A DNA stretch of 64,000 bases from Bradymonadia bacterium (GTDB lineage Bacteria > Myxococcota_A > Bradymonadia > UBA7976 > UBA1532), in the NCBI GenBank assembly GCA_046290225.1, contig JBKAGE010000076.1, forward strand, positions 1-64,000, read 5' to 3'. Positions 1-15,600 of this stretch are shown here, piece after piece. The translations under genes and the position numbers were made by a program. The notes below the pieces were generated by a model that saw nothing but the letters and a program-made list of their open reading frames with translations, searched no databases and was not told the origin of the DNA. The stretch's first letter is position 1. Every line of letters begins with the position of its first letter.

Positions 1-98
1 CAGTTGAGTTCGAAGAGGCTTACTACAACCGTCAAGCTGCCCAATCCCGGGCCGCCTGACTCATACAAAACCGTCTCCGACGAACCCGGGGCAGTTCA
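1..98 (+). mobile_element. Right end of an IS3-family insertion sequence (IS6110/IS51-like): transposase OrfB C-terminus plus right inverted repeat
   Basis: The frame from 3 reads VEFEEAYYNRQAAQSRAA-stop (TGA 57-59), resembling the PxExExxYY end of IS3 OrfB. It is followed by GTCTCCGACGAACCCGGGGCAGTTCA (73-98), whose reverse complement TGAACTGCCCCGGG...GGAGAC is a typical IS3 TG...CA terminus. Confidence 0.85.
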
Positions 99-137
99 CA
101 AAGGCTGTCTTGAGAGATGCGAGCAAGGGTGTAGACG

Positions 138-1955
138 TCAGGGGCTCTTTGGGCCGGGGAGGGTGCGAACGGGACGCAAGCCCAAAGCGTCGAACTTGTA
201 AGCTGGGACGTCACCCCCACGGCTGGCAGCCCGCACACGCGCCGGGAAGCACTTCCAGCAGCCGCCGCGGCGAACACGAGTGATCCCGGAGGAGGGTCCC
301 TCGGGGTTTTCTTCGGTACGCTCAGGTAAGGGTGCATACCAGTCCTGCGTCCACTCCCAGACATTGCCCAACATATCGTAGAGGCCATGACCGTTGGGCT
401 TCAGCTGCTTGACGGGATGGGGGCTGCCGTTGCTGTTCTCGCTGAACCAGCCCACCTCATTCAGGCGATATTCAGCATCTCCAGCCACAATTGGGCGCGC
501 AGCAAGCGCCCACTCTGCCTCAGTGGGCAGGCGATAGCCCTCACACTCGATCGATGTAAGTGCCAAGTCGTAGTCATCCCCCTCATAACACTCACTCAGC
601 CCTTCGATGCGCGACACTCGGTTGAGGTAACGCACCGCATCAAACCAAGTCACGCGCTCGACGGGGCAATCATCTCCGCACGTCTGGAAGGCTGATGGGT
701 TGCTGCCCATGACCGCCCTCCATTGACCTTGGGTCACCTCTGTCTCGCCAATGGAAAACCGGTGGGTCACCCGCACGGTATGTATGGTCTCGTCGTTACT
801 CCTGCCAATCTCGTCCTCAGGGCTGCCCATCGTGATCTCACCAGGTTGAATGGTGATCATCTCGGGACGTATGGCAGGAATGGACCGGGCGGGGCGTAGG
901 CCCATAATGTCGCTGCCGGGGGAATATGTGAGGTCGCCTGAAAAACTGGCAGCCCTCAACACCCTCGCAGCAGAGGACCAAGCACCACCCCGCAAAACAC
1001 GATCATTGATCTCCACCATCTGTCTTGGCGAATTCCCATCGTACTCCACCCATTCAGACACGTTACCCAACATGTCATACATCCCCCAGGCATTGGGCTC
1101 TTTTCCTGCCACAGGATGTGTCCCACATTGTTGCTGCTCAGGATATTGCTTCTCAAGCCACTGAGCGCAGTCTGCAGCCCCCGGATAGGTGACACCGCTG
1201 TTGCCGCCGTACCATGCGATGGGGTCGAGCGCTGGCGCGTCATGCTCCCCTTTAATGAACCACTTGCCTTTATAAATAGCATTCTGTGTACCTGCCCTCG
1301 CTGCATACTCCCACTCCTCTTCTGTAGGGAGTCGGTACCCTTTGCAACCCGCCGCCTTTAGGGCACCTTCTTCATAGCATTGCTCGAGCCCCTCGAGGTC
1401 GGACAGCCGGTTCAGATAAGCCAACGCGTCGTTCCAACCCACACGCTCTACAGGGCAATCATCACCACATGCTTTGAACCTCGACGGGTTGCTGCCCATG
1501 ACCGCCTTCCACTGACCCTGTGTCACCTCCGTCTCTCCCAACGCGAATGTGTGCGTCAGCTCTACTCTATGGAGTGGCTCGTATTCGTAATGCCACTCAT
1601 CTCGACCTTCTTCGTACCGAGGGCTCCCCATCATGAACCACCCCGTAGGTAGGACACGCATTTTGGGCCTGAGCGCATCACCCGAAGTCGAGGACGCCGA
1701 GTCGAGTAGTCTTCGCTTCCATGCGTCGTCGCCCATGGTCGGTGCGAGGGCGCCCCATGCGGTCTCTGATGCTGGGCGCAGACGCTCGTCGAGCGCAACA
1801 TGCCCGAAGATCCACATCCACAACGACAACCCAGAGAGCACCAACACCGCGCCGAGAATTTGAACGCCACGCGGGCCCGGATTCAGTGTGCTCCACCGTT
1901 TCAAAGAAGCAGCCCAACGCGCCCTATCAGCTTGATCCTTCATCAGAGCCTTCAC
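138..1955 (-). CDS. Membrane-anchored protein with two tandem FGE-sulfatase (SUMF1/CLec-fold) domains
   Basis: N-terminal TM helix, then two copies of FxMGS...ETEVTQGQW...PVExVxW...YRLPTExEW...PNxxGxYDMLGNVxEW...RGGxW...GxRP. Likely start is GTG 1955 (or ATG 1943), immediately after the upstream stop. Confidence 0.9.
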   Translation of the reverse strand: MKALMKDQADRARWAASLKRWSTLNPGPRGVQILGAVLVLSGLSLWMWIFGHVALDERLRPASETAWGALAPTMGDDAWKRRLLDSASSTSGDALRPKMRVLPTGWFMMGSPRYEEGRDEWHYEYEPLHRVELTHTFALGETEVTQGQWKAVMGSNPSRFKACGDDCPVERVGWNDALAYLNRLSDLEGLEQCYEEGALKAAGCKGYRLPTEEEWEYAARAGTQNAIYKGKWFIKGEHDAPALDPIAWYGGNSGVTYPGAADCAQWLEKQYPEQQQCGTHPVAGKEPNAWGMYDMLGNVSEWVEYDGNSPRQMVEINDRVLRGGAWSSAARVLRAASFSGDLTYSPGSDIMGLRPARSIPAIRPEMITIQPGEITMGSPEDEIGRSNDETIHTVRVTHRFSIGETEVTQGQWRAVMGSNPSAFQTCGDDCPVERVTWFDAVRYLNRVSRIEGLSECYEGDDYDLALTSIECEGYRLPTEAEWALAARPIVAGDAEYRLNEVGWFSENSNGSPHPVKQLKPNGHGLYDMLGNVWEWTQDWYAPLPERTEENPEGPSSGITRVRRGGCWKCFPARVRAASRGGDVPAYKFDALGLRPVRTLPGPKSP

Positions 1956-1956
1956 A

Positions 1957-4900
1957 TCAGTAAGACGTCCGCACTGGCCTGAACCCCAAGAAGTAGTATC
2001 GCGAATTTGGAGGCCAACTTCCACGCACAGCCAACCGGGTATCACTCGCAGTAGCCGCCCATGCACCGCCGCGGATTACCCGATCTCCACTCTGAGTGTT
2101 CACGAAAGGATCCTCGAGCACACCATCATCCTTGGCTTGCTCAAGGGCATCAAATGCTTTGCTGCGGTAGCTGCTCCCGGTCCACTCCACGACGTTGCCG
2201 AGTACGTCGTATACACCCCAGAAGTTCGGCTCTTTCTGTGCGACAGGGTGGGGACCACACAGTGTTTGATCGGGGTATTGCTTCTCGGCCCATTCTGTGC
2301 CGATGCACGCCTCGGCGCCCTCGTACGAGACCCCGCTGTTGCCTCCGTACCACGCGATCGAATCAAGCGCAGGTGCGTTGTGCTCGCCGACGATGGACCA
2401 ATCGTTCATCGAGTACGTAGCCCCCTGAAGCACATCGCCTCCGATATGAGATCTGGCCATGTATTCCCATTCAGCCTCTGTAGGCAACCGATACCCTTTA
2501 CAATCAATACTCTTGAGTTTTGTGCCCTGCTCATCGCCATCGCGATAGCACTGTTCGAGACTCTCCGCCTCAGACAGCCGGTTCAAGTATTCGATGACAT
2601 CGAACCAGCTGACGTTCTCCACAGGACAGTCATCGCCACACCGATAGAAATGAGATGGGTTCTGCTTCATCAGGGCCTTCCACTGCCCTTGCGTCACCTC
2701 TGTCTCTCCAACCAAAAACCGTCGGCTCAGGCGCACGTCATATTGTGTCTCATTGTCATACCTACCCTCTTCTTCTTCAGGGCTCCCCATCGTGAAGTAC
2801 CCCGGCTGGATCACGACCATGTTCGGGCGCAAGCGCGACTGCCTGATTTGAACAGGCCCTGACGGCTCGCCTTCGCCGACCTCTACCACTTGGTGGATAG
2901 TCACATCGAAGGGCACCTGCGCACCGAGGCTGACCACGCGGGGTGTAGATGCCAGAGCGTCCAGCCCTACGCTGAGCGTGTAAAACGCGATGGCAGCGGT
3001 GAGGCACGCACACCCAATCACCGCAGCGGCCCGACCGGCGAGGGTGCTCGGCCACCACCTCGGCGTCAGGCCAATGAAGCCACCCAGCGCCTGCTCCCCC
3101 TCACCTCTGATCTCTGTCGAGAGAGTCGCGAGGGCTTCTGTCAGCTTGAACGTCGTCGGATGTATCTCATCGGGGGCGTCGACACAGTCCATCTCGAGGG
3201 CCAACCATCGGTCTATCTCGTCCCCCATCATGCCTTCCCGACCCGCCATCAACGCCTTGAGGTTCTTCGGGGTTGGATCTGCGCGAAATGTATGGAACTT
3301 GACACTCCATATTAGCTGTACGCGCTCGATGTAGCCCATCTCTTCGCCGGTGCTCAACCGGGCAGACAATACCCTGCGCCAATAGTCGTGCACCTGATTC
3401 AGCATGCGCTGGCCTGCGAGAGTGCGTGCCGCTTCCAGCTTCCACCCTCGCCACCAATCGAAAGGGATGTGCAGGGTGGAGGCTCCGCTGGTGGGATCCC
3501 CTCTGAAACCTCGGCCGTCGATGGCCTGCCCTTTCTTCGCGATGTCTTCCACCAGCCACCACACATGCCAAGGCTGATCGAACCACCGGGTCACTTTTGG
3601 GAAGGCCGTACGCACCATCTCCATCTGATCCCAAGTGGCCATGGGCGAGACAGCCAAGGCCAGCCGCCAGAGTGCCATAGCCTCGTCATAGACATCCACT
3701 TCGGGGCTGGGCGCCTCTGGCCGCTCGGGAGGAGTATGCCAAGGCACCTCTTCTCGGTGGCGACCCTCAGCACTGAGGAACCGCGCCATGGCGATGAGCC
3801 CACGCGGGGTGGTGGGGAAACGCGCCAGCCCCTCAGCCTCAAGCATCTTGATCTCAGCAGCCATCCCAGGGCGGTCTTGGGCAGAGATGGGTGAAGGATC
3901 GAGCCACGCCACCGTAGACCAGGCGCCGAGATAAGCGCTCCAAGTGGCTCGCTTCGCCTGTCTCGACCCAGCGCCTTTGGAGGTGTCGCCCTTGGGGACC
4001 TGACTGTGCTCAAACGCCAGGGCCTGCCGAGAACAGATCAGCAGCGGGCCACTGATGTCGCGCGCCAGGGCGCCGAGGGAGATGAGCCGTTGACTGCCTT
4101 CGGCCCTCACATAATCGGGCTTGAGTTCAAACTCGTACACCCTCAGGGGGACCCCCATCTTTCGCCAAGTCTGGAGCAAGCGACGCAAAGCCCCGAGCCA
4201 GATGTGGCCGGACTGCCGGCTCTCCACGTCGAGCAACACGGTCAAGCTGATCTGTTGAGGTGCCGCCTGCATCACCGGCGCCCACGCCCCGCCCCGTTCA
4301 AGGGTGGCCTCGATGGTCTCTTCGACGTCGAGGGTGTCTCCAGTGGCGGGCGTGCCCAGCCGAGACAGCAACACAGCAGTCTCGACCAGAGTGCCCTGGT
4401 CGAAAGGTGGCTCTGCGAGAAACTGAAGTGAGCGTCGGTGTCGTTGCGCGAGGGCCTTCTCTTGCGCTTCGATGAGCGCGGCTCTTCGACGCTCCGCGAT
4501 CTGCCCCTCGTGTTGTGTTACCTCTTCTCGCGCACGCGACTCAGCCTCACGCCCCGACTTCGCACGGGCGGGCGCCCTCAGCCACCATCCCCCGAGCCCC
4601 ATAAAGAGCACACCCAGCGCGCCCAAGAGCCACTCGGCGACGCTGAACACCACAACTGGGGCCTCGACCTCGATCTGTCTTGGACGCATCAGATCAGGCC
4701 GCGGGATCTCTCGAAAGGCGCGGGTGGGCTGCGTGGCTTCTGGGTTTAAAGTGGGCGTTGGTGCCGTGGGCGCTGGTGGCGGGCTCGGCTCAGGGATTGA
4801 GGGCTGGCTCTGCTCCACAGAGTCAGTGCTTGAGGTGGCGAGCCACCACCCGATGGCGGCCACGAGGCACACAGAGACGCCCGTGAGCACCCGCCTAAGG

Positions 4901-5199
4901 CCCAGCGAAAGCTGAGCTTGGGTAGGCTGAACCTGATCTCTCGTACCCGACGCTCGAGAGAAGTGGTGATCGAAACGCCACCCCAGGCGGGCCTGCTCTT
5001 CAGGAGTGCGGGCGATGAGCGCCACCACAGAGTCTCTCAAAGCCTCGGGGCGCTGGAGCAGATCAGGCGCGCCCTCGATGAGCTGAGTGATGGCGAGCAT
5101 GTCTCCGGTACCGACAGGCAGTGAGAGTTCTTGCCTGACCATCTCGAGATAGCTGCGTAGCTCGTCGAGATCCCACTGGGGTTGGGTTGGGTTATCCAT
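1957..5199 (-). CDS. vWA component of a MoxR ternary system, with TM segments and a C-terminal FGE-sulfatase domain
   Basis: CoxE/vWA-like motifs (LDVEETIEAT...LTVLLD...WLDP...RFP), hydrophobic segments and a complete FGE domain at the C-terminus. Overlaps the MoxR stop codon. Confidence 0.8.
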   Translation of the reverse strand: MDNPTQPQWDLDELRSYLEMVRQELSLPVGTGDMLAITQLIEGAPDLLQRPEALRDSVVALIARTPEEQARLGWRFDHHFSRASGTRDQVQPTQAQLSLGLRRVLTGVSVCLVAAIGWWLATSSTDSVEQSQPSIPEPSPPPAPTAPTPTLNPEATQPTRAFREIPRPDLMRPRQIEVEAPVVVFSVAEWLLGALGVLFMGLGGWWLRAPARAKSGREAESRAREEVTQHEGQIAERRRAALIEAQEKALAQRHRRSLQFLAEPPFDQGTLVETAVLLSRLGTPATGDTLDVEETIEATLERGGAWAPVMQAAPQQISLTVLLDVESRQSGHIWLGALRRLLQTWRKMGVPLRVYEFELKPDYVRAEGSQRLISLGALARDISGPLLICSRQALAFEHSQVPKGDTSKGAGSRQAKRATWSAYLGAWSTVAWLDPSPISAQDRPGMAAEIKMLEAEGLARFPTTPRGLIAMARFLSAEGRHREEVPWHTPPERPEAPSPEVDVYDEAMALWRLALAVSPMATWDQMEMVRTAFPKVTRWFDQPWHVWWLVEDIAKKGQAIDGRGFRGDPTSGASTLHIPFDWWRGWKLEAARTLAGQRMLNQVHDYWRRVLSARLSTGEEMGYIERVQLIWSVKFHTFRADPTPKNLKALMAGREGMMGDEIDRWLALEMDCVDAPDEIHPTTFKLTEALATLSTEIRGEGEQALGGFIGLTPRWWPSTLAGRAAAVIGCACLTAAIAFYTLSVGLDALASTPRVVSLGAQVPFDVTIHQVVEVGEGEPSGPVQIRQSRLRPNMVVIQPGYFTMGSPEEEEGRYDNETQYDVRLSRRFLVGETEVTQGQWKALMKQNPSHFYRCGDDCPVENVSWFDVIEYLNRLSEAESLEQCYRDGDEQGTKLKSIDCKGYRLPTEAEWEYMARSHIGGDVLQGATYSMNDWSIVGEHNAPALDSIAWYGGNSGVSYEGAEACIGTEWAEKQYPDQTLCGPHPVAQKEPNFWGVYDVLGNVVEWTGSSYRSKAFDALEQAKDDGVLEDPFVNTQSGDRVIRGGAWAATASDTRLAVRGSWPPNSRYYFLGFRPVRTSY

Positions 5200-6193
5200 A
5201 TGCCCGCTCGAGGTCTCTCCAATCCTCGAAGAGCTTGATCAAGCAGCCCAGGTGGGGCACCTCGCTCCACGACGGCCGATCGCCAGGGGTGTAGCCCTGC
5301 ACCATCTCGCGATCATATGGGTCTGTGGCGTCGCTCTCCAACACCGTCACCCACTCCAGCAGCTCGGTGGTCGATGGTTTCTTCTTCAGAGTCTCTCTCG
5401 CCCTCAACGCGCTGAACATTTCGACAGCAGACACACGCAAAGGGCCCTGCCATTCTGCTTGAGGCTGACCGAGCCACCCGCTCACGATGGCATTCAGATC
5501 AGATGTGTCGGGGAATGGCACATGGCAGTAAACACAGCGTCGCAAGAACGCGTTGGGCAGCTGATGCTCGCCGTTGCTTGTAATGACCACGACAGGTCTG
5601 TGCTCTGGTGCTCGCCCTCGGGTGCCCATCACCCGCTGAAGCGAGAGACCTGATCGGTCGTACACCTCACCCTGTAAGACCTCATCGATCTCCGAAATCT
5701 CAAACTGGCCTTGATCGAGCTCTCGGAGCAAGTCATTGGGCAAATCACGGCGGGCCTTGTCGATCTCGTCGATGAGCACCACACGCCGTCGCGCGCTGGC
5801 GATCGCGACACCCAGCGGCCGCAGCTCGATGTAACATCTCGGATCAGCGGTCCGTGCCATGGCGTCTGAGTCACCATGGTGCGCATCCCCAAAACGCTTG
5901 AGAGAGTCATAGTGATACAGCAGATCTCGGGCCTTGCTCTCGGATCGCACATAACACTCAAGCAAGCCACGCTCGGGATCTTCTGGGGCCCAGTCTGGGG
6001 CGCCATCAAGCCAGCGCGCCAGCGCGAAGGCGAAGTCAGTCTTGCCGCAGCCAGGCTCACCGCTGAGCAGCAACGGCCGCCCCAAGATCATGGCGGCGCT
6101 GGCAGCATGTATCAGCCTCAAGGGTGGGATGAACGGCTTGCCGGCTCTGCCCTGAAGATAGTCGATGTCGTCTGGAGTGATGATTGTGTGCAT
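5192..6193 (-). CDS. MoxR-family AAA+ ATPase
   Basis: Walker A GEPGCGKT, ARDLLYHYD, Walker B VLIDEIDKA, PNDLL, ITSN...LPNAFLRRC and KKPSTTELLEW. Likely start ATG 6193. Confidence 0.93.
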   Translation of the reverse strand: MHTIITPDDIDYLQGRAGKPFIPPLRLIHAASAAMILGRPLLLSGEPGCGKTDFAFALARWLDGAPDWAPEDPERGLLECYVRSESKARDLLYHYDSLKRFGDAHHGDSDAMARTADPRCYIELRPLGVAIASARRRVVLIDEIDKARRDLPNDLLRELDQGQFEISEIDEVLQGEVYDRSGLSLQRVMGTRGRAPEHRPVVVITSNGEHQLPNAFLRRCVYCHVPFPDTSDLNAIVSGWLGQPQAEWQGPLRVSAVEMFSALRARETLKKKPSTTELLEWVTVLESDATDPYDREMVQGYTPGDRPSWSEVPHLGCLIKLFEDWRDLERAYG

Positions 6194-6198
6194 TGGCC

Positions 6199-8511
6199 TT
6201 ATGTGTATTGGGCGACGATGCGCTGCAGGGCCTCGCACAGCCCTCGAAACGTACCGTGTGTGTAGTGAGACCTCCACGCAGCCTCAGCCTCTGCGAGGGC
6301 TTCCGCGTCGGGGCCAACACGGAGCCTCACCAGCTCGTCCACGTCGTCAGAGGTTGGGAAGGTCACCTCTTTCAGAGTGAAGTGGCTCAAGGCGATGCGC
6401 TCAGGGCCTGCCTGCTCAACTGAGTCGAAGCTGCGCATCAACAACTCGACCTCTGGGGTATTCAACGGGCCAGCGGCCGGCTCTGTCAGGCGCTCGCGAT
6501 CGTGCTCAAGCAGGACACATACGCGCAGGCCCTTGAGCGTGACGCTGGTTTTTTGGGCCGCGCTCCACAGCAGGTCAGGGATCGCCTTCACCCACGCGGC
6601 GAGCGCCGCGATCTCTTCTCGGTGCGTTGTGACATCCAGCGGACCGACGACGAACAGGGCGGGCTCGCTCATCAGCAACACAGACAACGCCTCAACGAGA
6701 TCGATGTTCGACTCGGGGCCATCATAGTATTCGATGATCTCCTCCCAGAGCATCAGTTCCCAGCCCACGATGTTGTTGGCGCGAGCCGCTTTCACCCTCT
6801 GGGGGCTGAGCTCGATCGTGTAGTGCGATCCAGAGATGCCGCTGCGGATGTCTCGCTTGATCCGGTCGATGAAGACATCCAGGTCTTGGCGCCTGTCACC
6901 ATGGAGCAGAAAGGTGAAGTGCCCAGTCTTGTTTCGGCACCCCCTGATCAGCTTCCCCCACTCGGTCATCCGGTCCAGTTGAATCACCCAAGGGGACAAA
7001 TCGGTGGCGCTGGGCTCGCCGATGCCCGCTGGTCGCCTACCTCTCCGCTTCGGCGCCTGCCCGCTCTGACCGAGCCTCTCCGAAATCCACGCCGTTGTGG
7101 CCGGAGGGAGTTGGCTCAAGCTCAATGTGTGCACCTTCTGACTCGGGGTGCCGTCAGGCAATACGCTCACCTGCTCTTGCACGAGCCCTGTGGTCGAGAG
7201 CTCCGCCCATGTGAAGCACCAGCTTACGCCCTGGCCGGCAAATAAGGTCAGCCGTTCCTTATAGAGGTTGTGTACTCCGCCAACACGGGCTGGGCCCGAG
7301 CTGGCCGCCGAGCAGATGATGTGCGCCTCCCTTTCGAGGGTTTGTTGGAGCACCTTGAGATCTACGCCGTGTGTTTGGGGCTTCAATGCACCAGGATCGT
7401 CATAGGCGATGATGATCGAGAGACGCTCACCTGTCTGGTCGACCGCCTGCTTGACGACGCTTTGATCCACTACGCATGGCGCTCGCGCCTCCGGCTGGCC
7501 TGGATAGTCTCGCCAACAGGTGTTCAGGCCCAGCACATGCACTGGCAGGTCATCGGGGCGTATCGGCTGCGCCCACCACAGCGCGCTCCCGCGTTGGTAG
7601 GTGTATGCAGAGTTGCTGTCTGACTTGATGAAGTCGTCGAACTTCGACCAGTAAGTCGCCCACGCCTCTGCGCTGCTTCGGGGCAACGACCAGAGCCGCC
7701 TCCACAACCTCTTGTGAGCCTCTTTACTCTCTCTCCGCATAATGGGCCCGATGTCGCTCGGGCCCGGTACCACGAAGACGCGCTCGTGAGAAACCTTGGC
7801 GGCCACGGCGAGCCGCTCAAGATACGCGCCGACATCAGGCTCTCGCTCTGCTGAGCCAGCCCACCGCCCAGAGACTCGATCAAGAAGCTGCCCTGAGACG
7901 ATGACAAAGTCGGGGCCTTGTCCGCGCTTCACATACTCCTGCGCTCGGTCACAGATCAGGCCGAATCGCACGTCACCATGCTCAGTGCCCAGATCCAGGT
8001 CGGCGAGGTGAAGCCACCTCAGCTGCATTGCCTTCGGTGGGGGCGGCGCAGCCTTCGGTGAAGGTGACGTCTTATTCAAGCCCTGGCTCAATGTGGTCAG
8101 AGGTGCCCTTGAGACGCCTGCACTTTCAAATTTGGCGTTGAGAATTTCGTCCTGAAGGACCTCAAGGTAATCATAAACAACCTTGAGCCTCTGCTGATAC
8201 TCGGGCCTCAGGTGGTCACCCTCGAAGTAACTGGGGCTGACGTCGCACAGCCAACCTTTGCGCTCGAAGCCAGGAGCCAGCAGCATCCCGATGGCACCTT
8301 CATAGTATTGAGGAGATTGGGTTTTTTTAGCTGCTTTGAACACTTGCTCAACAGCATCTTCATTATCACACCCCCCCGTAAAGTCCCGATACAAACCAGG
8401 CAGAGCTTTGACCGCTAGAGCTCCCCCTGGAAAGAGCACTTTCAGGTGTGCCTTCACCTCTTTGAGGCGCTCGCCAACCTCTCGCCACAGCTGTTTGGCA
8501 TGAGCCCCCAT
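6199..8511 (-). CDS. Third component of the ternary system: variable N-terminal domain, degenerate calcineurin-like phosphoesterase and inactive STAND (iSTAND)-like domain
   Basis: LRWLHLADLDLG / PDFVIVSGQL / VFVVPGPSD / VLGLNTCW trace a metallophosphoesterase fold. The C-terminal LDRMTEW...FLLHGDRRQDLDVFIDRI resembles a Walker-A-less STAND. It lies directly upstream of MoxR and vWA. Confidence 0.7.
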   Translation of the reverse strand: MGAHAKQLWREVGERLKEVKAHLKVLFPGGALAVKALPGLYRDFTGGCDNEDAVEQVFKAAKKTQSPQYYEGAIGMLLAPGFERKGWLCDVSPSYFEGDHLRPEYQQRLKVVYDYLEVLQDEILNAKFESAGVSRAPLTTLSQGLNKTSPSPKAAPPPPKAMQLRWLHLADLDLGTEHGDVRFGLICDRAQEYVKRGQGPDFVIVSGQLLDRVSGRWAGSAEREPDVGAYLERLAVAAKVSHERVFVVPGPSDIGPIMRRESKEAHKRLWRRLWSLPRSSAEAWATYWSKFDDFIKSDSNSAYTYQRGSALWWAQPIRPDDLPVHVLGLNTCWRDYPGQPEARAPCVVDQSVVKQAVDQTGERLSIIIAYDDPGALKPQTHGVDLKVLQQTLEREAHIICSAASSGPARVGGVHNLYKERLTLFAGQGVSWCFTWAELSTTGLVQEQVSVLPDGTPSQKVHTLSLSQLPPATTAWISERLGQSGQAPKRRGRRPAGIGEPSATDLSPWVIQLDRMTEWGKLIRGCRNKTGHFTFLLHGDRRQDLDVFIDRIKRDIRSGISGSHYTIELSPQRVKAARANNIVGWELMLWEEIIEYYDGPESNIDLVEALSVLLMSEPALFVVGPLDVTTHREEIAALAAWVKAIPDLLWSAAQKTSVTLKGLRVCVLLEHDRERLTEPAAGPLNTPEVELLMRSFDSVEQAGPERIALSHFTLKEVTFPTSDDVDELVRLRVGPDAEALAEAEAAWRSHYTHGTFRGLCEALQRIVAQYT

Positions 8512-8649
8512 GTGACACCCTTCTCACGCATGTCGTTGTTTCAAGTAGGGAACTATCGGCTCGGTGTACGGAGCGCAAGGACCTCGATTCGTTCTCTGTA
8601 GACTCTTTGGTGCTTGAGATGCGAGCTCGCCGCTCTTCTCCCCACTTCG

Positions 8650-8687
8650 TTCCCCCACAACTCCCCCACAGCTCCCCTACAGCTCCC
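8650..8687. repeat. 11-bp direct repeat x3.5 in the divergent intergenic region
   Basis: TTCCCCCACAA / CTCCCCCACAG / CTCCCCTACAG / CTCCC. Confidence 0.85.
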
Positions 8688-8759
8688 TCGCCCTGATGAC
8701 TAGCGTGCAAACCACGTCCTGCCACGAGCCTCAAGGCCTTAAGAAGCAAGGGGAAAACC

Positions 8760-9620
8760 ATGAAGCCCGACACCACCACTCAGCGCGCTCACCCTCTACT
8801 CGATGAGGGCACCGTCCTCCGGCTCTACACCCTCGCTCAGCGGTTCAAAGGGCTCGGCGCCCAGGGAGGCCTGACACCAGAAGATCTCGTCCACGAAGCC
8901 TTGGGAGCGATGCTGGCCGGCAAGAAGACGCTTGAGTACCGCTCGGAGGCGACGTTCATGGCCTGGGCGCGAGTTGTCTTGTATCGAATCGCCATCGACG
9001 GCAAGCGCAAGCGCTCTCTCGAGCGTGCGCTCAACCACTCGAGCAACGGATCTGCAGATGCCTCGGAAGAGATTTATGCGCCTCACATCCACAGGGCCCG
9101 CGCTTGCCCATCTTCTGACCTCGTCGATTTCGCCTACGAGATCGACGACAACGCCAAGTCGTGGGGGCTTGAGTTTGAAGATCTCGTCATGTTGATCAGG
9201 CATACCCTCGACACACCCCTGGAGCTCGCCGGCCAAGTCGATCAGTTCATGGAGTTCTTGCTCGTCTGCGCCGCCGAAGCCAAGAGCCCTGCGTTGATGG
9301 TGGCCGGTCTCTTGAAGCGTGTGATCGAGAAGTGCGTTGCGGATGCGAAGCAGGGCACTCGGCGGGCCAACCGGCGCGCCTATCTCAAGCTTATCCTCGA
9401 CAACCCCGAGAGCTTTGCATCGGTGCTGAGCCAAAGGTCATACGTCAGCTTCATCCCCGTGTTGTTCGCCCACTACGCTCAAGGCAAGAGCTTCAAAGAC
9501 GCCTCAGGCGAGCTGGGCTGCTCCTATTCGAACGCCCGCAACAAGCACTCAGATCTGCTCAAAGCTCTCAAGGGCCAAGTCTTTGGTTTGGTTACACAGG
9601 ACATCGCCTGGGCAGCTTAA
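8760..9620 (+). CDS. ECF-type sigma-70 factor-like protein with a long insertion between regions 2 and 4
   Basis: Region 2-like EDLVHEAL...FMAWARVVLYRIAIDGKR and region 4 HTH-like HYAQGKSFKDASGELGCSYSNARNK. GGGG RBS upstream. Confidence 0.7.
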   Translation: MKPDTTTQRAHPLLDEGTVLRLYTLAQRFKGLGAQGGLTPEDLVHEALGAMLAGKKTLEYRSEATFMAWARVVLYRIAIDGKRKRSLERALNHSSNGSADASEEIYAPHIHRARACPSSDLVDFAYEIDDNAKSWGLEFEDLVMLIRHTLDTPLELAGQVDQFMEFLLVCAAEAKSPALMVAGLLKRVIEKCVADAKQGTRRANRRAYLKLILDNPESFASVLSQRSYVSFIPVLFAHYAQGKSFKDASGELGCSYSNARNKHSDLLKALKGQVFGLVTQDIAWAA

Positions 9621-9628
9621 GGAGCGGC

Positions 9629-10162
9629 TCACCCAAACACCCCCTCCACACCCGGGAAGCTCTCCACCAGATACCCCACCCCCGTAATCATCTCCTCGTA
9701 CCCCGGCACCGTGCGCTCTGCGTCGCTCACCCCCGCCGCCTCGTGCAACATCACACACAGCAGCGCTGTGAGCACGAACGCCGCCCCTGCCTCAGCGCCT
9801 TCGCCGAGGTTCTGCGCCTCCTCGCTCGCCCGGATCGCCACCTCGTCCGTGGGTCCGCACATCGCCAGCGCCTCGCTCTGCACCGACGGCTCTTCCAGCC
9901 ACAGCGCCAGTACGTCTATCCCGCGTCGCGTCAGCGCAATGTCCACCTCCGCCAACGCCTCATCTCCACCGGACCAGTACCCGCGCCAGCACTCTGCCCA
10001 GAGTGGCTGCAAACCTTCGAGCACCGGCAGCGCACCGCGCACGCGGTCGTCAGCGGCCTCAAAGGCCAGCATCCCGTCGATCCACGCCTCTACACTCATC
10101 GCCTCACCTCGAGAAATCTCGCCGATGTTCACCTCGCCAGTGAACACGCGACGCGCTGACAT
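9629..10162 (-). CDS. Hypothetical acidic protein
   Basis: 177-aa ORF with an ATG start that fills the gap, convergent with the sigma gene. No recognisable motif. Confidence 0.55.
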   Translation of the reverse strand: MSARRVFTGEVNIGEISRGEAMSVEAWIDGMLAFEAADDRVRGALPVLEGLQPLWAECWRGYWSGGDEALAEVDIALTRRGIDVLALWLEEPSVQSEALAMCGPTDEVAIRASEEAQNLGEGAEAGAAFVLTALLCVMLHEAAGVSDAERTVPGYEEMITGVGYLVESFPGVEGVFG

Positions 10163-10188
10163 CGTTGCTCTTCCGTGTGCACACGCAT

Positions 10189-10351
10189 TAGAGCGTTATG
10201 AGGAAGAAGCTGCTACACCAGACTTGCCCATCGACGAGATCTCAAGCTCAGAAATGCTCGGTGATGCTTTGGCATCGCCTGCGCTTTCTTCCCTCGACCT
10301 CTCGCCGATGTTCTTCGCCTGCCGCATCAGCTTCTTCCGCATAACGCTCTA
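10189..10351. mobile_element. MITE-like element with 22-bp terminal inverted repeats flanked by TA
   Basis: TA-GAGCGTTATGAGGAAGAAGCTG (10189-10212) and CAGCTTCTTCCGCATAACGCTC-TA (10328-10351) are inverted with one mismatch. The interior has no convincing coding capacity. Confidence 0.75.
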
Positions 10352-10386
10352 TCAGCAGAGAACGCACCCAGAGCCCAGGCAAACCC

Positions 10387-12351
10387 ATGAGACTCATCAT
10401 CCCCTTGCTGCTGCTCCTCGCCTGCGGCTGCGACGCCACCTCCAGCTACTTCGATCAGTTCAAGACCGGGCCCCGGGCCCTCACCGACGAAGATGCCTTC
10501 GGGCGGCTGAGCCCCGATCGCAGCGGCGCCCCCGAGGCCGACATCAGCTCAGTCATGATGGCCATCGACAACGAGATCCGTGGCGGCGGTCCCATGGCGC
10601 AAGACCCCCAGGTCGATCAGCTGATGCGTCGCGTCGTCTTCGATCGCCAGCACATCGACGAGAGTCGGTTCGAGCTCGTCGACTTCGGAGAATTTGGCCT
10701 CGAAGAGAGCGTTGAGAAGAGCAACTGCGCCTTCGAAGCCCCCGACGAAAAGCTCATGGCCGACGACTATGTGATCCCTGGCGTGGAGAAGATCCCTGTG
10801 CGCAGTCAGGGTGGGCGGGGCACCTGCGCCGCCTTCGCCGGCATCGCCAGCATCGAGTATGCCGCCCTCAACCAGAAAGACGGTCCCGCTGCATCCACCC
10901 TGCCCACCCTCGATCTCAGCGAGCAGCGGTTCTACTGGATGTCGAAGCCCAGCTGCCAGGGCCCCACGGGGTGTGAGTGCCCGGACTGCAAACAGGGCTC
11001 GTGGTACACCGTGGGCATGGATGCCTCCGCTGCTGGCGGTGACTTCAACATCCCTCTGGAGACTGACTGCCCCTACAACCGCACCAAGGGCGACAACGAC
11101 ACCCAGTATCCCCAGGCCGAGAGCTGTAAGATCGGCGCCGTGCAGGTGGAAGAGGTCGACAACTGGTGTGGCATCGACGATCTCATCGACTTGCTCAACC
11201 GGGGCTACGCCGTGCCCTATGCCAGCCCGCTCTCGGGCAACTGGTCCGCCAACGACGGCCTCATCACCGCCGCCGACCTCTCCAAGCCCGACAACAGCAT
11301 CCACTCCGGGGGTCACGCCTACCTGATCGTGGGCTACCGCAAGCTGCCCGACATGCCCGAAGAGGGCGGCGTGTGCTTCTACATCAAGAACTCGTGGGGC
11401 ACCGGCTGGGGCGTCGCAGGCTACAGCTGCCAGACCCTCGAGTGGATGCGCCAGGTCACCTTCAACGGCTTCATCTCCCGGCAACAGCCCGTGGCCCTGA
11501 AGGTGCGTGTTCGTGACGACTTGCAGCGTGGAGACGCGCTGCCCGACAACGACGACACTGAGGGTGACTTCCCCGACATCTTCGACGAGACCGATCCCGA
11601 CGATGACGACGTGCTCCCTGCGCCACAACCTGACCCTGAGCCGGAGCCAGAGCCTGAGCCTGCCCCGGAGCCCCCTGTAGAGGTCTTCACCGACGCCAGG
11701 CTCTACGGGCCGAATGAGACCTACTACGAGGTCCAGACCCACGCAGAAGACGACGACCTGTTCATCCGGGGCGAGATGAAGCAGGGGGCGGGATACACCG
11801 AGATGCTGCGGCTCAAGCTCGACGGCGACAACATCATCTACAAAGGCGACGTGATCGGCGAACGGCGCGGCGACGTGCTCACGGTATGCACCCGAGAGTG
11901 GGCGCCGCTGTGCGCCCTGCGCTACCGGGATGTCGACCAGCGGCTCTACGTGCAGTTCCGCGATGACGACCTGCGAGCGGTCAAGGCAGAGGAGACCGCC
12001 GAAGAGCGAGGCACGTGGTACAGCCTCGATCTCGGCCGCGAGTACGGGCTGTTCCTGCCCAACGACGTCACCTCGTTCGACTTCCTGCTCAACCCGAAGA
12101 CCTTTGTGCGCCTGGGCGGCAGCGTCCCTGCCAGGGTCTCGCTGCAGCGGGTGAGCGGCGGCACCGACTTCATGGTGAGGCTCAGCGGTCAGGAGATCGG
12201 GGTGTTCAAGCCCACAGCGCCCACTCAGAGCGCCCTGTGCAGCGGGCCGGACTATGGCGAACGCTGCGAGCTGCGGGGCCTCGACCGGACCTTCGTGCTC
12301 CCTCGAAACACGGGCACTCGGGTCAAACGCGCGGAAGAGGTCGAGCGGTAG
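10387..12351 (+). CDS. Papain-like (C1 family) cysteine protease lipoprotein
   Basis: Lipobox LLACGC; oxyanion Q and catalytic Cys in QGGRGTCAAFA; LDLSEQ; catalytic His GHAY; IKNSWG; acidic/PE-repeat linker before an unknown C-terminal domain. Confidence 0.88.
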   Translation: MRLIIPLLLLLACGCDATSSYFDQFKTGPRALTDEDAFGRLSPDRSGAPEADISSVMMAIDNEIRGGGPMAQDPQVDQLMRRVVFDRQHIDESRFELVDFGEFGLEESVEKSNCAFEAPDEKLMADDYVIPGVEKIPVRSQGGRGTCAAFAGIASIEYAALNQKDGPAASTLPTLDLSEQRFYWMSKPSCQGPTGCECPDCKQGSWYTVGMDASAAGGDFNIPLETDCPYNRTKGDNDTQYPQAESCKIGAVQVEEVDNWCGIDDLIDLLNRGYAVPYASPLSGNWSANDGLITAADLSKPDNSIHSGGHAYLIVGYRKLPDMPEEGGVCFYIKNSWGTGWGVAGYSCQTLEWMRQVTFNGFISRQQPVALKVRVRDDLQRGDALPDNDDTEGDFPDIFDETDPDDDDVLPAPQPDPEPEPEPEPAPEPPVEVFTDARLYGPNETYYEVQTHAEDDDLFIRGEMKQGAGYTEMLRLKLDGDNIIYKGDVIGERRGDVLTVCTREWAPLCALRYRDVDQRLYVQFRDDDLRAVKAEETAEERGTWYSLDLGREYGLFLPNDVTSFDFLLNPKTFVRLGGSVPARVSLQRVSGGTDFMVRLSGQEIGVFKPTAPTQSALCSGPDYGERCELRGLDRTFVLPRNTGTRVKRAEEVER

Positions 12352-12364
12352 CCCACTGTGACGC

Positions 12365-12408
12365 TCACGCCCGTAGCTTCTTACGCCCGCAGCCCTTACG
12401 CCCGCAGC
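12365..12408 (-). repeat. Three 13-bp copies of the gene-terminal sequence GCTGCGGGCGTAA
   Basis: Copies at 12365-12377, 12381-12393 and 12396-12408; the last is the true gene end. A similar pair lies at 14002-14014 and 14017-14029. Confidence 0.8.
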
Positions 12409-13988
12409 AGCGTCACCGCACGGCCTGAGGGCGTGGTGTGATCTTCAAAGCGGACACGGTCGTCCACGTCGGCAGCGTCGTCACGCATGTCGAAGATGAC
12501 GAGCCAGCCGTGGGCCACGCCAGTGCGGCCCAAATACTCGTCGATTTGCTCCAGCCCGCGGGCCAGTGGGTCACCACGACGGTCGGTGGTGGCCCAGCGC
12601 TTGAGCTCGACGACCTCGCGCTGCACCTGACGGCCCTCTGGGGTCTCGTGAGGCCAACGCACCAGCAGGTCGATGCGGCCACGACCCATGCCGTACTCGC
12701 GGTCGATGGTGCCGCCGCCGTTCACCACGCGCTGCAGGAACGCCATCATCACGATTTGAGCCGTAGCCTCGGGGTAAGTTTGCCCAGGGCGGGCCATGGC
12801 CTCCCCGTGCTCCATCCAAAACTCAGCGAAGGCCTCCATGGCGCCGCGCATGTCGAAGCGCCCATCAGACAACACGAAGCGCGACGGCTCCACCACGATG
12901 CGGGGGGTGTAGTTCGCCGTCAGGGCCCGCACCATCACCTCGCGGTAAATCGGGTTCGCAGGCCGCACAGGCAGGTCCCGGGCGATGAGCCCCAAGTCGG
13001 TCACGTAGCTCACGTCGTCGCTGTACGTCATGTCCGAGCTCGTCTGAGGCGCCCCACCAGAGATGAGCGGCTCCAGCACTCGGCGCACCGGCGGCTCGTG
13101 CAGCTTCGACACCAGCGAGTCCAGGTGTGTCGCTCGGTCCAGAATCAGCCGCGCCTTCGCCAGCTCTATGTGCTCGACGGTGACGGTCTCAGTGACGCGC
13201 ATTTTGTAGAGCACCTCGGCGGCGAGGCTGTTCACCAACCATGGCTGCCCCTGAGTCAGCTCGACCACCCGGGACAACGCCTCGGTGGTGAAGCCCTGAT
13301 CCGTGGCCTCTGTGTGCAGTGTGTACAGCGCCTCGACCTGCTCAGCGGTGAAGTTCCCCAGAGTGAGCGACGCCACCTTGATGTTGAACGGGCTCGAGGT
13401 GCCCAGCCGATCGCTGCCCCCGCTGGCGCGTTTGTAGTCTCGAACGTCACGCAGCCCACACAGCGCCACCGACCAAGGGCCGTGCTCAGGGCGATGATTG
13501 TGCGTCGCTCGGAGCTGCCGGAGCACAGAGACGAGGCTCTGCCCGCGCAAAGCGTCGATCTCGTCGAAGAAGAGGACCACCGGCTTGGGGCACACCTCGC
13601 ACCACTCGCTCAAGAACGTGCTGAGCAGGGCTGTGTCGGGGCTCTCCTGAACGCGCTCAGGGGGCCGCTCCTGCTCTGGCAATTGGCGGCGGCTCTCCAT
13701 GCGGATTTGATGAATCACCGCCCGTTGCGCCTCGGCGTAATCGTCCCCTGCGGCCTCTCCTGCTTCACACGAGAAATAGACCGTCGTGAACGTCCCGGCG
13801 ACGTTGAGCGCCTGCGCGAGATGCTGCAACGCCGTGGTCTTGCCTGTCTGTCGAGGGGCGTGCACCACGAAATATGCCCCGTCTTCGACGAGCTCGTGCG
13901 CCTCTGGCAGGCGCTCCAGAGGCGGCAGCATATAGTGCCTGTGGGCATAGCACGGCCCAGCGGTGTTGAACTTTTTGGCTCTCTGCAT
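12396..13988 (-). CDS. AAA-like P-loop NTPase with C-terminal PD-(D/E)xK nuclease-like domain (paralog 2)
   Basis: FNTAGPC start, Walker A APRQTGKTT, Walker B FFDEID, SPFNIK, TQGQPWLVN, C-terminal REY...GRIDL...ELK. Start ATG 13988 with a GAGG RBS. Confidence 0.9.
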   Translation of the reverse strand: MQRAKKFNTAGPCYAHRHYMLPPLERLPEAHELVEDGAYFVVHAPRQTGKTTALQHLAQALNVAGTFTTVYFSCEAGEAAGDDYAEAQRAVIHQIRMESRRQLPEQERPPERVQESPDTALLSTFLSEWCEVCPKPVVLFFDEIDALRGQSLVSVLRQLRATHNHRPEHGPWSVALCGLRDVRDYKRASGGSDRLGTSSPFNIKVASLTLGNFTAEQVEALYTLHTEATDQGFTTEALSRVVELTQGQPWLVNSLAAEVLYKMRVTETVTVEHIELAKARLILDRATHLDSLVSKLHEPPVRRVLEPLISGGAPQTSSDMTYSDDVSYVTDLGLIARDLPVRPANPIYREVMVRALTANYTPRIVVEPSRFVLSDGRFDMRGAMEAFAEFWMEHGEAMARPGQTYPEATAQIVMMAFLQRVVNGGGTIDREYGMGRGRIDLLVRWPHETPEGRQVQREVVELKRWATTDRRGDPLARGLEQIDEYLGRTGVAHGWLVIFDMRDDAADVDDRVRFEDHTTPSGRAVTLLRA

Positions 13989-14016
13989 ACCGCTCACCCT
14001 CTCACGCACGCAGCTC

Positions 14017-15600
14017 TTACGCCCGCAACAATGTCACCGCCCGGCCTGAGGGCGTGGTGTGATCTTCAAAGCGGACACGGTCGTCCACGTCGGGGGCGTC
14101 GTCGCGCATATCGAAGATGACGAGCCAGCCGTGGGCCACGCCAGTGCGCCCCAAGTACTCGTCGATTTGCTCCAGGCCCCGCGCAAGTGGATCACCGCGG
14201 CGATCTCCAGTGGACCAGCGCTTCAGTTCAACGACCTCGCGCTGAAGCTGGCGGCCCTCTGCAGTCTCGTAGGGCCAACGCACCAAGAGGTCGATACGGC
14301 CGCGACCCATGCCGTACTCGCGGTCGATTGTGCCGCCACCGTTCACGACACGCTGTAAGAACGCCATCATCACAATCTGCGCCGTGGCTTCGGGGTACGT
14401 CTGCCCCGGACGGGCCATGGCCTCACCATGCTCCATCCAGAAGTCGGCAAAGGCCTGCATCGCCCCGCCCATATCGAAGCGGCCATCAGGCATCACGAAG
14501 CGCGCTGGCTCAGTGACGATGCGAGGGGTGTAGTTCGCCGTGAGGGCCCGGACCATCACCTCGCGATAGATGGGGTTCGCCGGGCGTATGGGCAGGTCGC
14601 GGGCGATGAGGCCCAGGTCGGTCACATAGCTCACATCGTCGCTGTATGTCATGTCGGAGCTTGTCTGAGGCGCGCCACCAGAGATGAGCGGCTCAAGCAC
14701 TCGATGCACAGGTGGCTCGTGCAGCTTTGACACCAGCGAGTCGAGGTGTGTCGCTCGAGCAAGGATCAACCGCGCCTTCGCCTGCTCGATGTGATCGACG
14801 GTGATGGTCTCGGTGATACGCATTTTGTGGATCACCTCGGCAGCGAGGCTGTTCACCAACCAGGGCTGCCCCTGCGTCAACTCAAAGGCGCGCAGCAGCG
14901 CAGCATCAGCGAATGCCTGTCCTGTCGTCTCAGTGTGCTCACGATAAAGAGCGGTCAGCTCACCAATACTGAAGTTGCCAACAGTGAGTGACTCCACCTT
15001 GATGTTGAACGGGCTCGCGGTCCCCAAGCGGTCGCTCCCCCCGCTGGCCTTTTTGTAATCACGCACATCGCGCAGCCCGCACAACACCACCGACCATGGC
15101 GCCCGAGCTGGGCGGTTGGGAAAACCAGCCCGCAGCTGACGTAGCACCACATTGAGCGCCTCACCCCTCAGGGCGTCGATCTCATCAAAGAGCAGCACCA
15201 GCTGTTTCGGGCAGGTCTGAGCCCATGTCGAGAGCGCGTTGAACAACATCGGTGGGGGCGAATCGAGCAGATCCTCGGGCGGCCGACAATCTGCGGGCAA
15301 CTGTGCAGAGGCCTCGGTGATCATCGTCCCGACGAGCTGTCGCATCGTCTCGTTGGGATCATCAGGCCATGCCGAGGCCGCCTCACAGGTGAAGTAGACC
15401 GCGGCCTGATCACCTTGAGCGTTGATGGCTTCAGCTGCAGCTCTGATGGTGGTGGTCTTGCCGCACTGTCGTGGGGCGTGCACCACGATGTAGTCGCCAT
15501 ACTCCACGTGATCGAGCAGCGAGGGCAAACGCGGCAACGGCGGCAACATATAGTGTCGCTGTCCGTCACAGGGCCCGGCGGTGTTGAAGCGCTTCTTCAT
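14017..15600 (-). CDS. AAA-like P-loop NTPase with C-terminal PD-(D/E)xK nuclease-like domain (paralog 1)
   Basis: Same motifs as the neighbour (APRQCGKTT, LFDEID, GRIDL...ELK); GAGGA RBS. Confidence 0.9.
   Translation of the reverse strand: MKKRFNTAGPCDGQRHYMLPPLPRLPSLLDHVEYGDYIVVHAPRQCGKTTTIRAAAEAINAQGDQAAVYFTCEAASAWPDDPNETMRQLVGTMITEASAQLPADCRPPEDLLDSPPPMLFNALSTWAQTCPKQLVLLFDEIDALRGEALNVVLRQLRAGFPNRPARAPWSVVLCGLRDVRDYKKASGGSDRLGTASPFNIKVESLTVGNFSIGELTALYREHTETTGQAFADAALLRAFELTQGQPWLVNSLAAEVIHKMRITETITVDHIEQAKARLILARATHLDSLVSKLHEPPVHRVLEPLISGGAPQTSSDMTYSDDVSYVTDLGLIARDLPIRPANPIYREVMVRALTANYTPRIVTEPARFVMPDGRFDMGGAMQAFADFWMEHGEAMARPGQTYPEATAQIVMMAFLQRVVNGGGTIDREYGMGRGRIDLLVRWPYETAEGRQLQREVVELKRWSTGDRRGDPLARGLEQIDEYLGRTGVAHGWLVIFDMRDDAPDVDDRVRFEDHTTPSGRAVTLLRA

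Follow-up and report, generated by a model that had tools for sequence, protein, structure and literature searches.

Ternary systems composed of an inactive STAND-type protein (iSTAND), a MoxR ATPase and a von Willebrand factor A (vWA) protein are predicted only, and which of their ends senses and which responds is disputed. Members that span the membrane separate these ends physically and could settle the direction. One such operon lies at the start of the 64,000-nucleotide window analyzed here, positions 1 to 64,000 of contig JBKAGE010000076.1 (C76) of a Bradymonadia bacterium (assembly GCA_046290225.1; 8.58 Mb, 99.4% complete), and raises the questions of what it detects, how it responds and whether the sigma factor gene divergent from it takes part. 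We are confident that its four minus-strand genes encode an iSTAND-type MoxR-vWA ternary system, as a preliminary description of this DNA had held: a STAND-like fold, a vWA fold and a gene set conserved as a unit were all found. We give about an even chance to the operon being an intact, membrane-spanning outside-in threat sensor with a noncatalytic output, probably working without the sigma factor.

The operon genes (8.4 kb) were stop free and tightly coupled, with a gap of 5 nt, an overlap of 8 nt (5192-5199, between the MoxR and vWA genes) and a gap of at most 13 nt between successive open reading frames. All five reading frames of the preliminary description, the operon and the sigma factor gene, were present close to where it had placed them and lacked internal stops, but its starts for the MoxR gene (6277) and the last gene (2066) were longest-frame starts and were replaced. 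The MoxR gene starts at ATG 6193, 5 nt past the third-component stop, and its product is identical to database protein P0002; the most likely start of the last gene is ATG 1943 or GTG 1955 (601 or 605 aa). For the third component, the 770-aa form is preceded by a ribosome-binding site and was also the call in another assembly (P0128, 100% identity; the sample may be the same), while the NCBI call is 626 aa. The GC content at third codon positions (GC3) of the operon was in the lowest 2 to 6% of the genome, which suggests acquisition as a unit.

Conservation was examined in 14 related loci, ten of them found through MoxR (L003, L014 to L016 and L129 to L134) and four through an iSTAND profile (L137 to L140). 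L016 was taken from 80 metagenome loci kept in a generic MoxR scan, the other 79 being left out, as were 33 viral loci with a distant MoxR (22 to 30%). The order third component-MoxR-vWA was present in 13 of the 14 loci, with L138 ending at a contig edge. In all ten MoxR-found loci, MoxR was flanked by an iSTAND-like gene on its upstream side and a vWA gene on its downstream side, and three of the other four loci had both MoxR and vWA genes. The five-gene arrangement of the preliminary description thus recurred in its core order and, in 10 of the 14 loci, in its accessory FGE gene, but in none of them in its sigma factor gene. The system was patchy, being detected in 4 of 28 family genomes and in 6 of 401 genomes of a phylum sample (six candidates scored per genome). 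Two related systems, at L015:8157-14437 and L137:7135-12692, contained several frameshifts and are either decayed or poorly assembled.

The domain N-terminal to iSTAND varied among these loci: a TIR domain in L003, L131, L139 and L140, a caspase in L016, EAD5 in L129 and L132, no Pfam family in L014, L130, L133 and L134, a trypsin-like domain (by eye) in L138 and a broken slot in L015 and L137. Neither the phosphoesterase nor the orphan domain found in the window was matched in any of the 14. These two domains newly fill a slot that is variable by definition and, together with the tandem FGE domains of the accessory gene, are the only unusual part of the operon compared with its relatives.

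The C terminus of the third component (aa 491 to 770) was the best match in the whole genome to the iSTAND family PF19995, at 14.6 to 15.5 bits with a cutoff of 24. Weak matches were obtained in 8 of 13 relatives scanned (E limits of 0.5 and 0.1), and only L132 scored over the cutoff; as judged from their sequences, the iSTAND domains of the window and its relatives form a diverged branch. A model built from 15 aligned sequences had an AAA+ topology, with a predicted local distance difference test (pLDDT) score of 86. The best Foldseek matches of this model were ORC4 and Cdc6 (E of 2e-6; TM-scores of 0.40 to 0.48), and a VIA fold search matched it to Cdc6/Orc1 (Z of 12.5, root mean square deviation of 5.0, 226 aligned residues) and to APAF-1 and NRC4 (Z of 10.7). 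The P-loop position read HGDRRQD, and the Walker A lysine was present in none of the 15 aligned rows. In this model the C terminus of the third component, proposed earlier to be iSTAND-like, has an AAA+ fold that lacks a P-loop and is closest to ORC/Cdc6 and STAND proteins. Used by itself as a homolog query, the iSTAND region recovered only the protein it came from; hhalign of its profile against the AAA_35 protein of the window gave no significant match, and sequence searches of the PDB with both profiles gave no matches. Against longer proteins the iSTAND profile, at low sensitivity, found one relative (P0122, with a weak DRHyd-like match) and no calcineurin fusion.

Residues 163 to 470 of the third component were calcineurin-like (PF00149, E of 0.018), and the top Atlas matches were Metallophos. 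In comparison with two intact relatives (L142 and L143) from 400 phylum genomes, one of the seven metal ligands (D171) was kept and six were changed. All five motifs (DxH, GD, GNH, HH and GHxH) were affected, reading LADLD, SGQ, PGPSD, YDDP and SAASS in the window versus LSDLH, TGD, PGNHD, HHP and GHxH in the relatives. Despite these changes the domain was in frame across 308 codons. It is predicted to be inactive, in agreement with the earlier view of it as a dead phosphoesterase, and may bind metal weakly, some of the replacements being aspartates. The core carried no catalytic toxin. The preliminary description had seen no obvious active toxic effector; the absence of an enzyme on the third component was confirmed, but it is not special, two relatives having only EAD5 and four more having no Pfam family N-terminal to iSTAND. 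In a same-family genome, the third component of L138 (8139-9831) had, by eye, a trypsin-like N terminus with degenerate-looking catalytic motifs and a C-terminal EAD5-like segment, and is possibly a second dead-enzyme variant.

The N-terminal domain (aa 1 to 130) had no match in Pfam or to EAD1, and aa 1 to 135 had none in Atlas. The searches gave no evidence of an EAD identity, with no EAD1 match and no second copy in the assembly at an E of 1e-3. The GC3 of the domain, the lowest of the locus and at the 0.5th percentile genome-wide, suggests that this module was added recently.

The MoxR protein (333 aa, without VMAP-type extensions) had an intact Walker A motif (GEPGCGKT, 45-52), Walker B motif (LIDEIDK, 140-146) and LRR arginine finger (217-219), all three of which were invariant among relatives. 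At least 508 relatives were detected at an E of 1e-40 among 8,000 candidates scored, the named ones (45 to 53%) coming from Nannocystis, Sorangium, Haliangium, Entotheonella and others. A second MoxR gene of the genome, on contig C78, was considered as a second system and rejected, as it is part of a CoxD/CoxE-like pair. No Pfam vWA match was obtained in any of 12 rows comprising the 1,080-aa protein and its relatives. The profile of this protein aligned with the CoxE-like protein of the genome at aa 258 to 474 (hhalign E of 1.1e-4, 194 columns), and the model of this region (pLDDT of 77) had the NorD vWA as its best Foldseek match (E of 5e-4; six of the top seven rows), which bears out the proposed vWA fold. 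The metal-ion-dependent adhesion site (MIDAS) was degenerate across the subfamily, with the first aspartate (D324) present in 12 of 12 rows and the second in none, strand 4 ending in Ser-X. At the N terminus, where vWA proteins of the class have a four-helix domain, a conserved block of 90 aa aligned across nine rows.

Three FGE domains (PF03781, E of 1e-38 and 2e-80) were detected, one on the vWA protein and two on the accessory protein. Hydropathy analysis gave three peaks in the 1,080-aa protein (104-122, ∼187-207 and 724-742) and one in the accessory protein, so that transmembrane (TM) helices do precede the FGE domains as claimed but number three, not one, in the vWA protein. This topology supports the predicted extracytoplasmic position of the FGE domains, and their cysteine counts were even, which is consistent with disulfides outside the cytoplasm. 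The N-domain and vWA domain would lie inside the membrane, with the Pro-rich loop and FGE domain outside. The cysteine pattern typical of the true FGE enzyme is missing from the three FGE ends; the last of them has its own CWKC. In an FGE tree containing one over-long row (L129_vWA), the three window domains formed no supported clade, and they were mutually nearest by path. A second tandem-FGE protein of the genome (G000:C36:420835-422685) had a lipoprotein-like N terminus, was 36% identical to the accessory protein and had no MoxR gene alongside.

This membrane-spanning, FGE-rich layout had been described as unusual, which did not hold. All three TM peaks were present in seven of nine related vWA proteins, and the accessory FGE gene was absent from only four loci, three of them cut by contig ends, so that the layout is the norm among relatives. 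The accessory gene of relatives was often on the opposite strand, had a TM peak in 8 of 10 cases and never had two FGE domains. Moreover, section 20 of the paper by Kaur, Burroughs, Iyer and Aravind (2020, PMC7159879) describes for iSTAND systems N-terminal TM segments in ∼28%, FGS as the commonest C-terminal domain (∼22%) and an envelope-proximal action. Variation of the FGE ends by a diversity-generating retroelement (DGR) was considered and rejected, there being no fitting template repeat (the best nonself match to the three ends had at least 25 nonadenine mismatches per 100 nt, in an assembly that is 99.4% complete and broken 138 bp downstream) and the reverse transcriptases lying elsewhere. 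The two reverse transcriptases of the genome, retron-like in appearance, are distant from the operon on contig C79 (G000:C79:178175-181442), where their genes are convergent amid genes that by eye resemble those for WGR, SWIM and HEAT-repeat proteins.

The analysis shows which genes are present, how their products fold, that catalytic motifs have been lost and that the gene order is conserved; how the system works is what we infer. The lectin-like domains likely detect something outside the membrane. The three FGE/C-type-lectin domains would recognize either a damaged envelope or a ligand on the surface of a phage, predator or epibiont, and the signal would reach the cytoplasmic vWA domain by way of TM3 and the helical linker. 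The MoxR ring would then remodel the vWA-iSTAND complex with ATP, and iSTAND, incapable of nucleoside triphosphate hydrolysis, would act as an oligomeric scaffold that exposes or releases its N-terminal cargo. The cargo of relatives is TIR, caspase or an EAD5 adaptor. In this copy it would be the orphan domain, likely an adaptor or effector, and the pseudo-phosphoesterase, which likely binds nucleotides or phospho-ligands or serves as a decoy for them. Outside-in sensing is favored by the conserved gene order, the variable N-terminal slot (TIR, caspase or EAD5), the AAA+/STAND fold, the vWA homology and the intact MoxR motifs. It is further favored by the three TM peaks, which place the vWA domain inside and the FGE domain outside, by the even FGE cysteine counts, by the recurrent accessory FGE gene and by the retained frame of the pseudoenzyme and the low GC3 of the operon. 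The signaling direction proposed for DGR-linked loci in PMC10907252 and the precedent of the Esr pathway, as described in the sections cited below, point the same way.

The sigma factor gene offers an alternative in which the system signals instead of killing: the outside lectin domains would fire the MoxR motor, which would strip the ECF-like sigma factor off an anti-sigma factor formed by the pseudo-phosphoesterase and orphan domain fused to iSTAND and thereby switch on a defense regulon. If true, an iSTAND ternary system would have been rewired from killing to transcription, with a new way of sigma factor activation. The gene is head-to-head with the operon and has a good ribosome-binding site. 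Its product is divergent (TIGR02937, 26.9 bits with a cutoff of 42.9), with sigma2 at 22-97 and sigma4 at 234-271, both below curated cutoffs, separated by an insert of ∼135 aa; a profile from 41 ECF-like segments of the genome recovered it at an E of 2e-10. Like the orphan modules, this atypical protein lacks a close homolog: none was found in 30 order or 400 phylum genomes, and it formed a singleton cluster. With 58 ECF-like matches in the genome (46 over the cutoff) and >4,460 long open reading frames, the chance of such an adjacency is ∼1% per neighbor, which is low yet expected in a large scan. Precedents include ECF genes beside EACC2-caspase systems in PMC8195603, a helix-turn-helix gene replacing VMAP at DGR 8 in section 13 of PMC10907252 and the transcriptional output of Esr (bioRxiv 10.64898/2026.09.08.750141). 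A near strain had fragments of the operon and of the sigma factor gene, on separate contigs, and 6 of 12 listed sigma differences in this strain were nonsynonymous (depth of 2 to 4, too thin for heavy weight). Comparison with relatives did not support the link: the 41-segment profile found no sigma gene near any of the 14 related systems (at least 4.1 kb upstream covered in 12), and the GC3 of the gene was at the 17th percentile, between the operon (2nd to 6th) and the flank. No domain shared by the sigma insert and the N-terminal domains was found. A complex prediction of the sigma factor with aa 1 to 480 of the third component, both without alignments, scored 0.00 and is no evidence either way. 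The claim that the system has its own sigma factor thus lacks comparative support; the sigma factor probably lies outside the system, and its release is an unlikely explanation, second among the three alternatives weighed here.

Marginally ahead of it, and also improbable, is sensing from inside, as proposed by Kaur et al., in which iSTAND and the dead phosphoesterase would sense invader nucleic acid or nucleotides, MoxR would remodel the vWA protein and the FGE domains would bind or contain the invader at the envelope. Inactive STANDs are proposed as nucleic acid receptors in section 19 of PMC8195603, inactive enzymes are described as decoys in section 35 of PMC7159879, and the folds closest to our model are the DNA-binding ORC/Cdc6 ATPases. 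However, known output domains (TIR and caspase) occur on the third component in relatives, which fits a downstream role for this component, and the FGE domains are membrane anchored in an operon that encodes no protease to release them. The least likely of the three is a disarmed relic, a slowly decaying operon without output whose phosphoesterase was once an active effector. None of the four genes encodes a catalytic effector, no partner of the N-terminal domain was found, an IS-like element ends 38 bp past the last operon stop, and the frameshifts of L015 and L137 indicate that such systems decay or assemble badly. Set against this are the stop-free, tightly coupled genes, the intact MoxR motifs and the loss of six of seven ligands, which is slow and left the frame intact throughout. 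Several points weigh against the outside-in sensor as well. PF19995 was below its cutoff here and in all but one of the relatives scanned, and the structural scores of the vWA domain were modest, the best VIA match being Rea1-MIDAS (Z of 9.2), tied with dehydroquinase (Z of 9.0). The N-terminal domain had no paralog in the assembly (E of 1e-3), and hence the homotypic partner of an EAD adaptor was not found. In the near strain, four of four differences listed in the 3′ part of the phosphoesterase region were nonsynonymous, which fits relaxed selection and the relic, although this evidence comes from one contig at a depth of 3.6. Kaur et al. (2020 and 2021) propose the opposite direction, with iSTAND sensing inside and FGS as the effector. 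The literature searched, which excluded most subscription journals, contained neither an experimental test of an iSTAND system nor a sigma-linked one, and the word "sigma" was absent from the main text of PMC7159879. Overall, outside-in sensing with a noncatalytic output, at roughly even odds, is favored over inside sensing, sigma release and decay.

Table 1. Features of the operon and its immediate flanks (positions in the window)
Feature	Position	Strand	Basis or remark
Third component: orphan N-terminal domain + pseudo-phosphoesterase + iSTAND, 770 aa	6199..8511	-	
Orphan N-terminal domain, aa 1-130	8122..8511	-	GC3 0.55; no family or paralog found
Calcineurin-like phosphoesterase, predicted inactive	7102..8025	-	PF00149 E 0.018; Atlas Metallophos; alignment to L142, L143
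iSTAND domain, aa 491-770	6199..7041	-	PF19995 14.6 bits; fold model; motif columns
MoxR-type AAA+ ATPase, 333 aa	5192..6193	-	Walker A, Walker B, LRR arginine finger
vWA component, 1,080 aa: putative helical N-domain, TM1, Pro-rich loop, TM2, vWA, helical linker, TM3, FGE	1957..5199	-	
CoxE-like vWA domain, aa 258-474	3778..4428	-	hhalign, Foldseek
FGE/C-type-lectin-fold domain after TM3, predicted extracytoplasmic	1969..2826	-	
Accessory gene, ~601 aa: one TM + two tandem FGE (882-1667, 165-866)	138..1943	-	
Divergent ECF-like sigma factor, 248 bp from first operon gene	8760..9620	+	
End of multicopy element	1..99		

The multicopy element at the window's start, which we take to be IS3-like, has identical copies where contigs C70 and C50 end, and the contig breaks there. 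On the other side, a 177-aa orphan gene (9629-10162), without a family in Pfam, NCBIfam or PADLOC, is convergent with the sigma factor gene and 8 bp from its stop. It is followed by a 164-bp repeat (10188-10351) resembling a miniature inverted-repeat transposable element, with 33-nt imperfect inverted ends and full or two-arm copies on 12 other contigs. A papain-family (C1) peptidase gene (10387-12351) with a lipoprotein-like N terminus, a Pro/Glu-rich linker and host-typical codon usage precedes two tandem AAA_35 + PD-(D/E)XK-like genes (12396-15600) that are 77% identical and belong to a family of nine copies in the genome. PADLOC gave only weak generic matches, and no sigma-70 promoter-like site was present in 8300-10400. 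At L133 (2796-6200), an extracellular contractile injection system core protein with a C-terminal deaminase toxin-like domain is encoded ∼2 kb upstream of the related system.

As the output of this copy has no easy assay, the TIR-carrying relatives L003, L131 and L139 are better test cases. The main interest of the present copy is that it exemplifies a noncatalytic output; a real sigma link would make it far more important.

A works-like analogue is the Esr epibiont-sensing pathway of Actinomycetales, in which, according to deletion evidence, a cluster that includes MoxR and vWA detects a parasite on the cell surface and activates transcription (bioRxiv 10.64898/2026.09.08.750141, section 8). 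It shares MoxR and vWA with a surface sensor, a signaling output and a pseudophosphatase domain (EsrG1), but belongs to another family, with a beta-propeller/Ig sensor, a transglutaminase, a kinase-phosphatase-FHA relay and Esx secretion, and that section mentions neither iSTAND nor FGE. In Clade 5A and related DGR-linked MoxR loci (PNAS 2024, PMC10907252, sections 13 and 14), MoxR is directly upstream of a long CLec protein with a second, short CLec gene; tandem and TM-anchored periplasmic CLec domains occur there, and CLec is proposed as the sensor. Those loci differ in having a DGR, whereas none was found in this assembly.

The closest known systems are the iSTAND ternary systems themselves (vWA-MoxR subsystem 2 of PMC7159879). 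They share with the operon an inactive STAND third component, a MoxR without VMAP-type extensions, a CoxE-like vWA protein (probably also its helical N-domain), TM-preceded envelope domains and variable N-terminal fusions, EADs being optional in the class. The text of PMC7159879 lists fusions to TIR, DRHyd, caspase, trypsin, EADs and bDLD1 but none that pairs a dead calcineurin-like domain with an orphan domain (figures and source data may include one), and calcineurin N-terminal to STAND-FGS proteins is described in PMC8195603. The second MIDAS aspartate, which most ternary vWAs keep along with the first according to section 8 of PMC7159879, is missing here, and the passages of that paper on iSTAND systems make no mention of an accessory TM-FGE gene. 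The locus is thus a further member of a known, computationally predicted class, with a layout typical of its branch.

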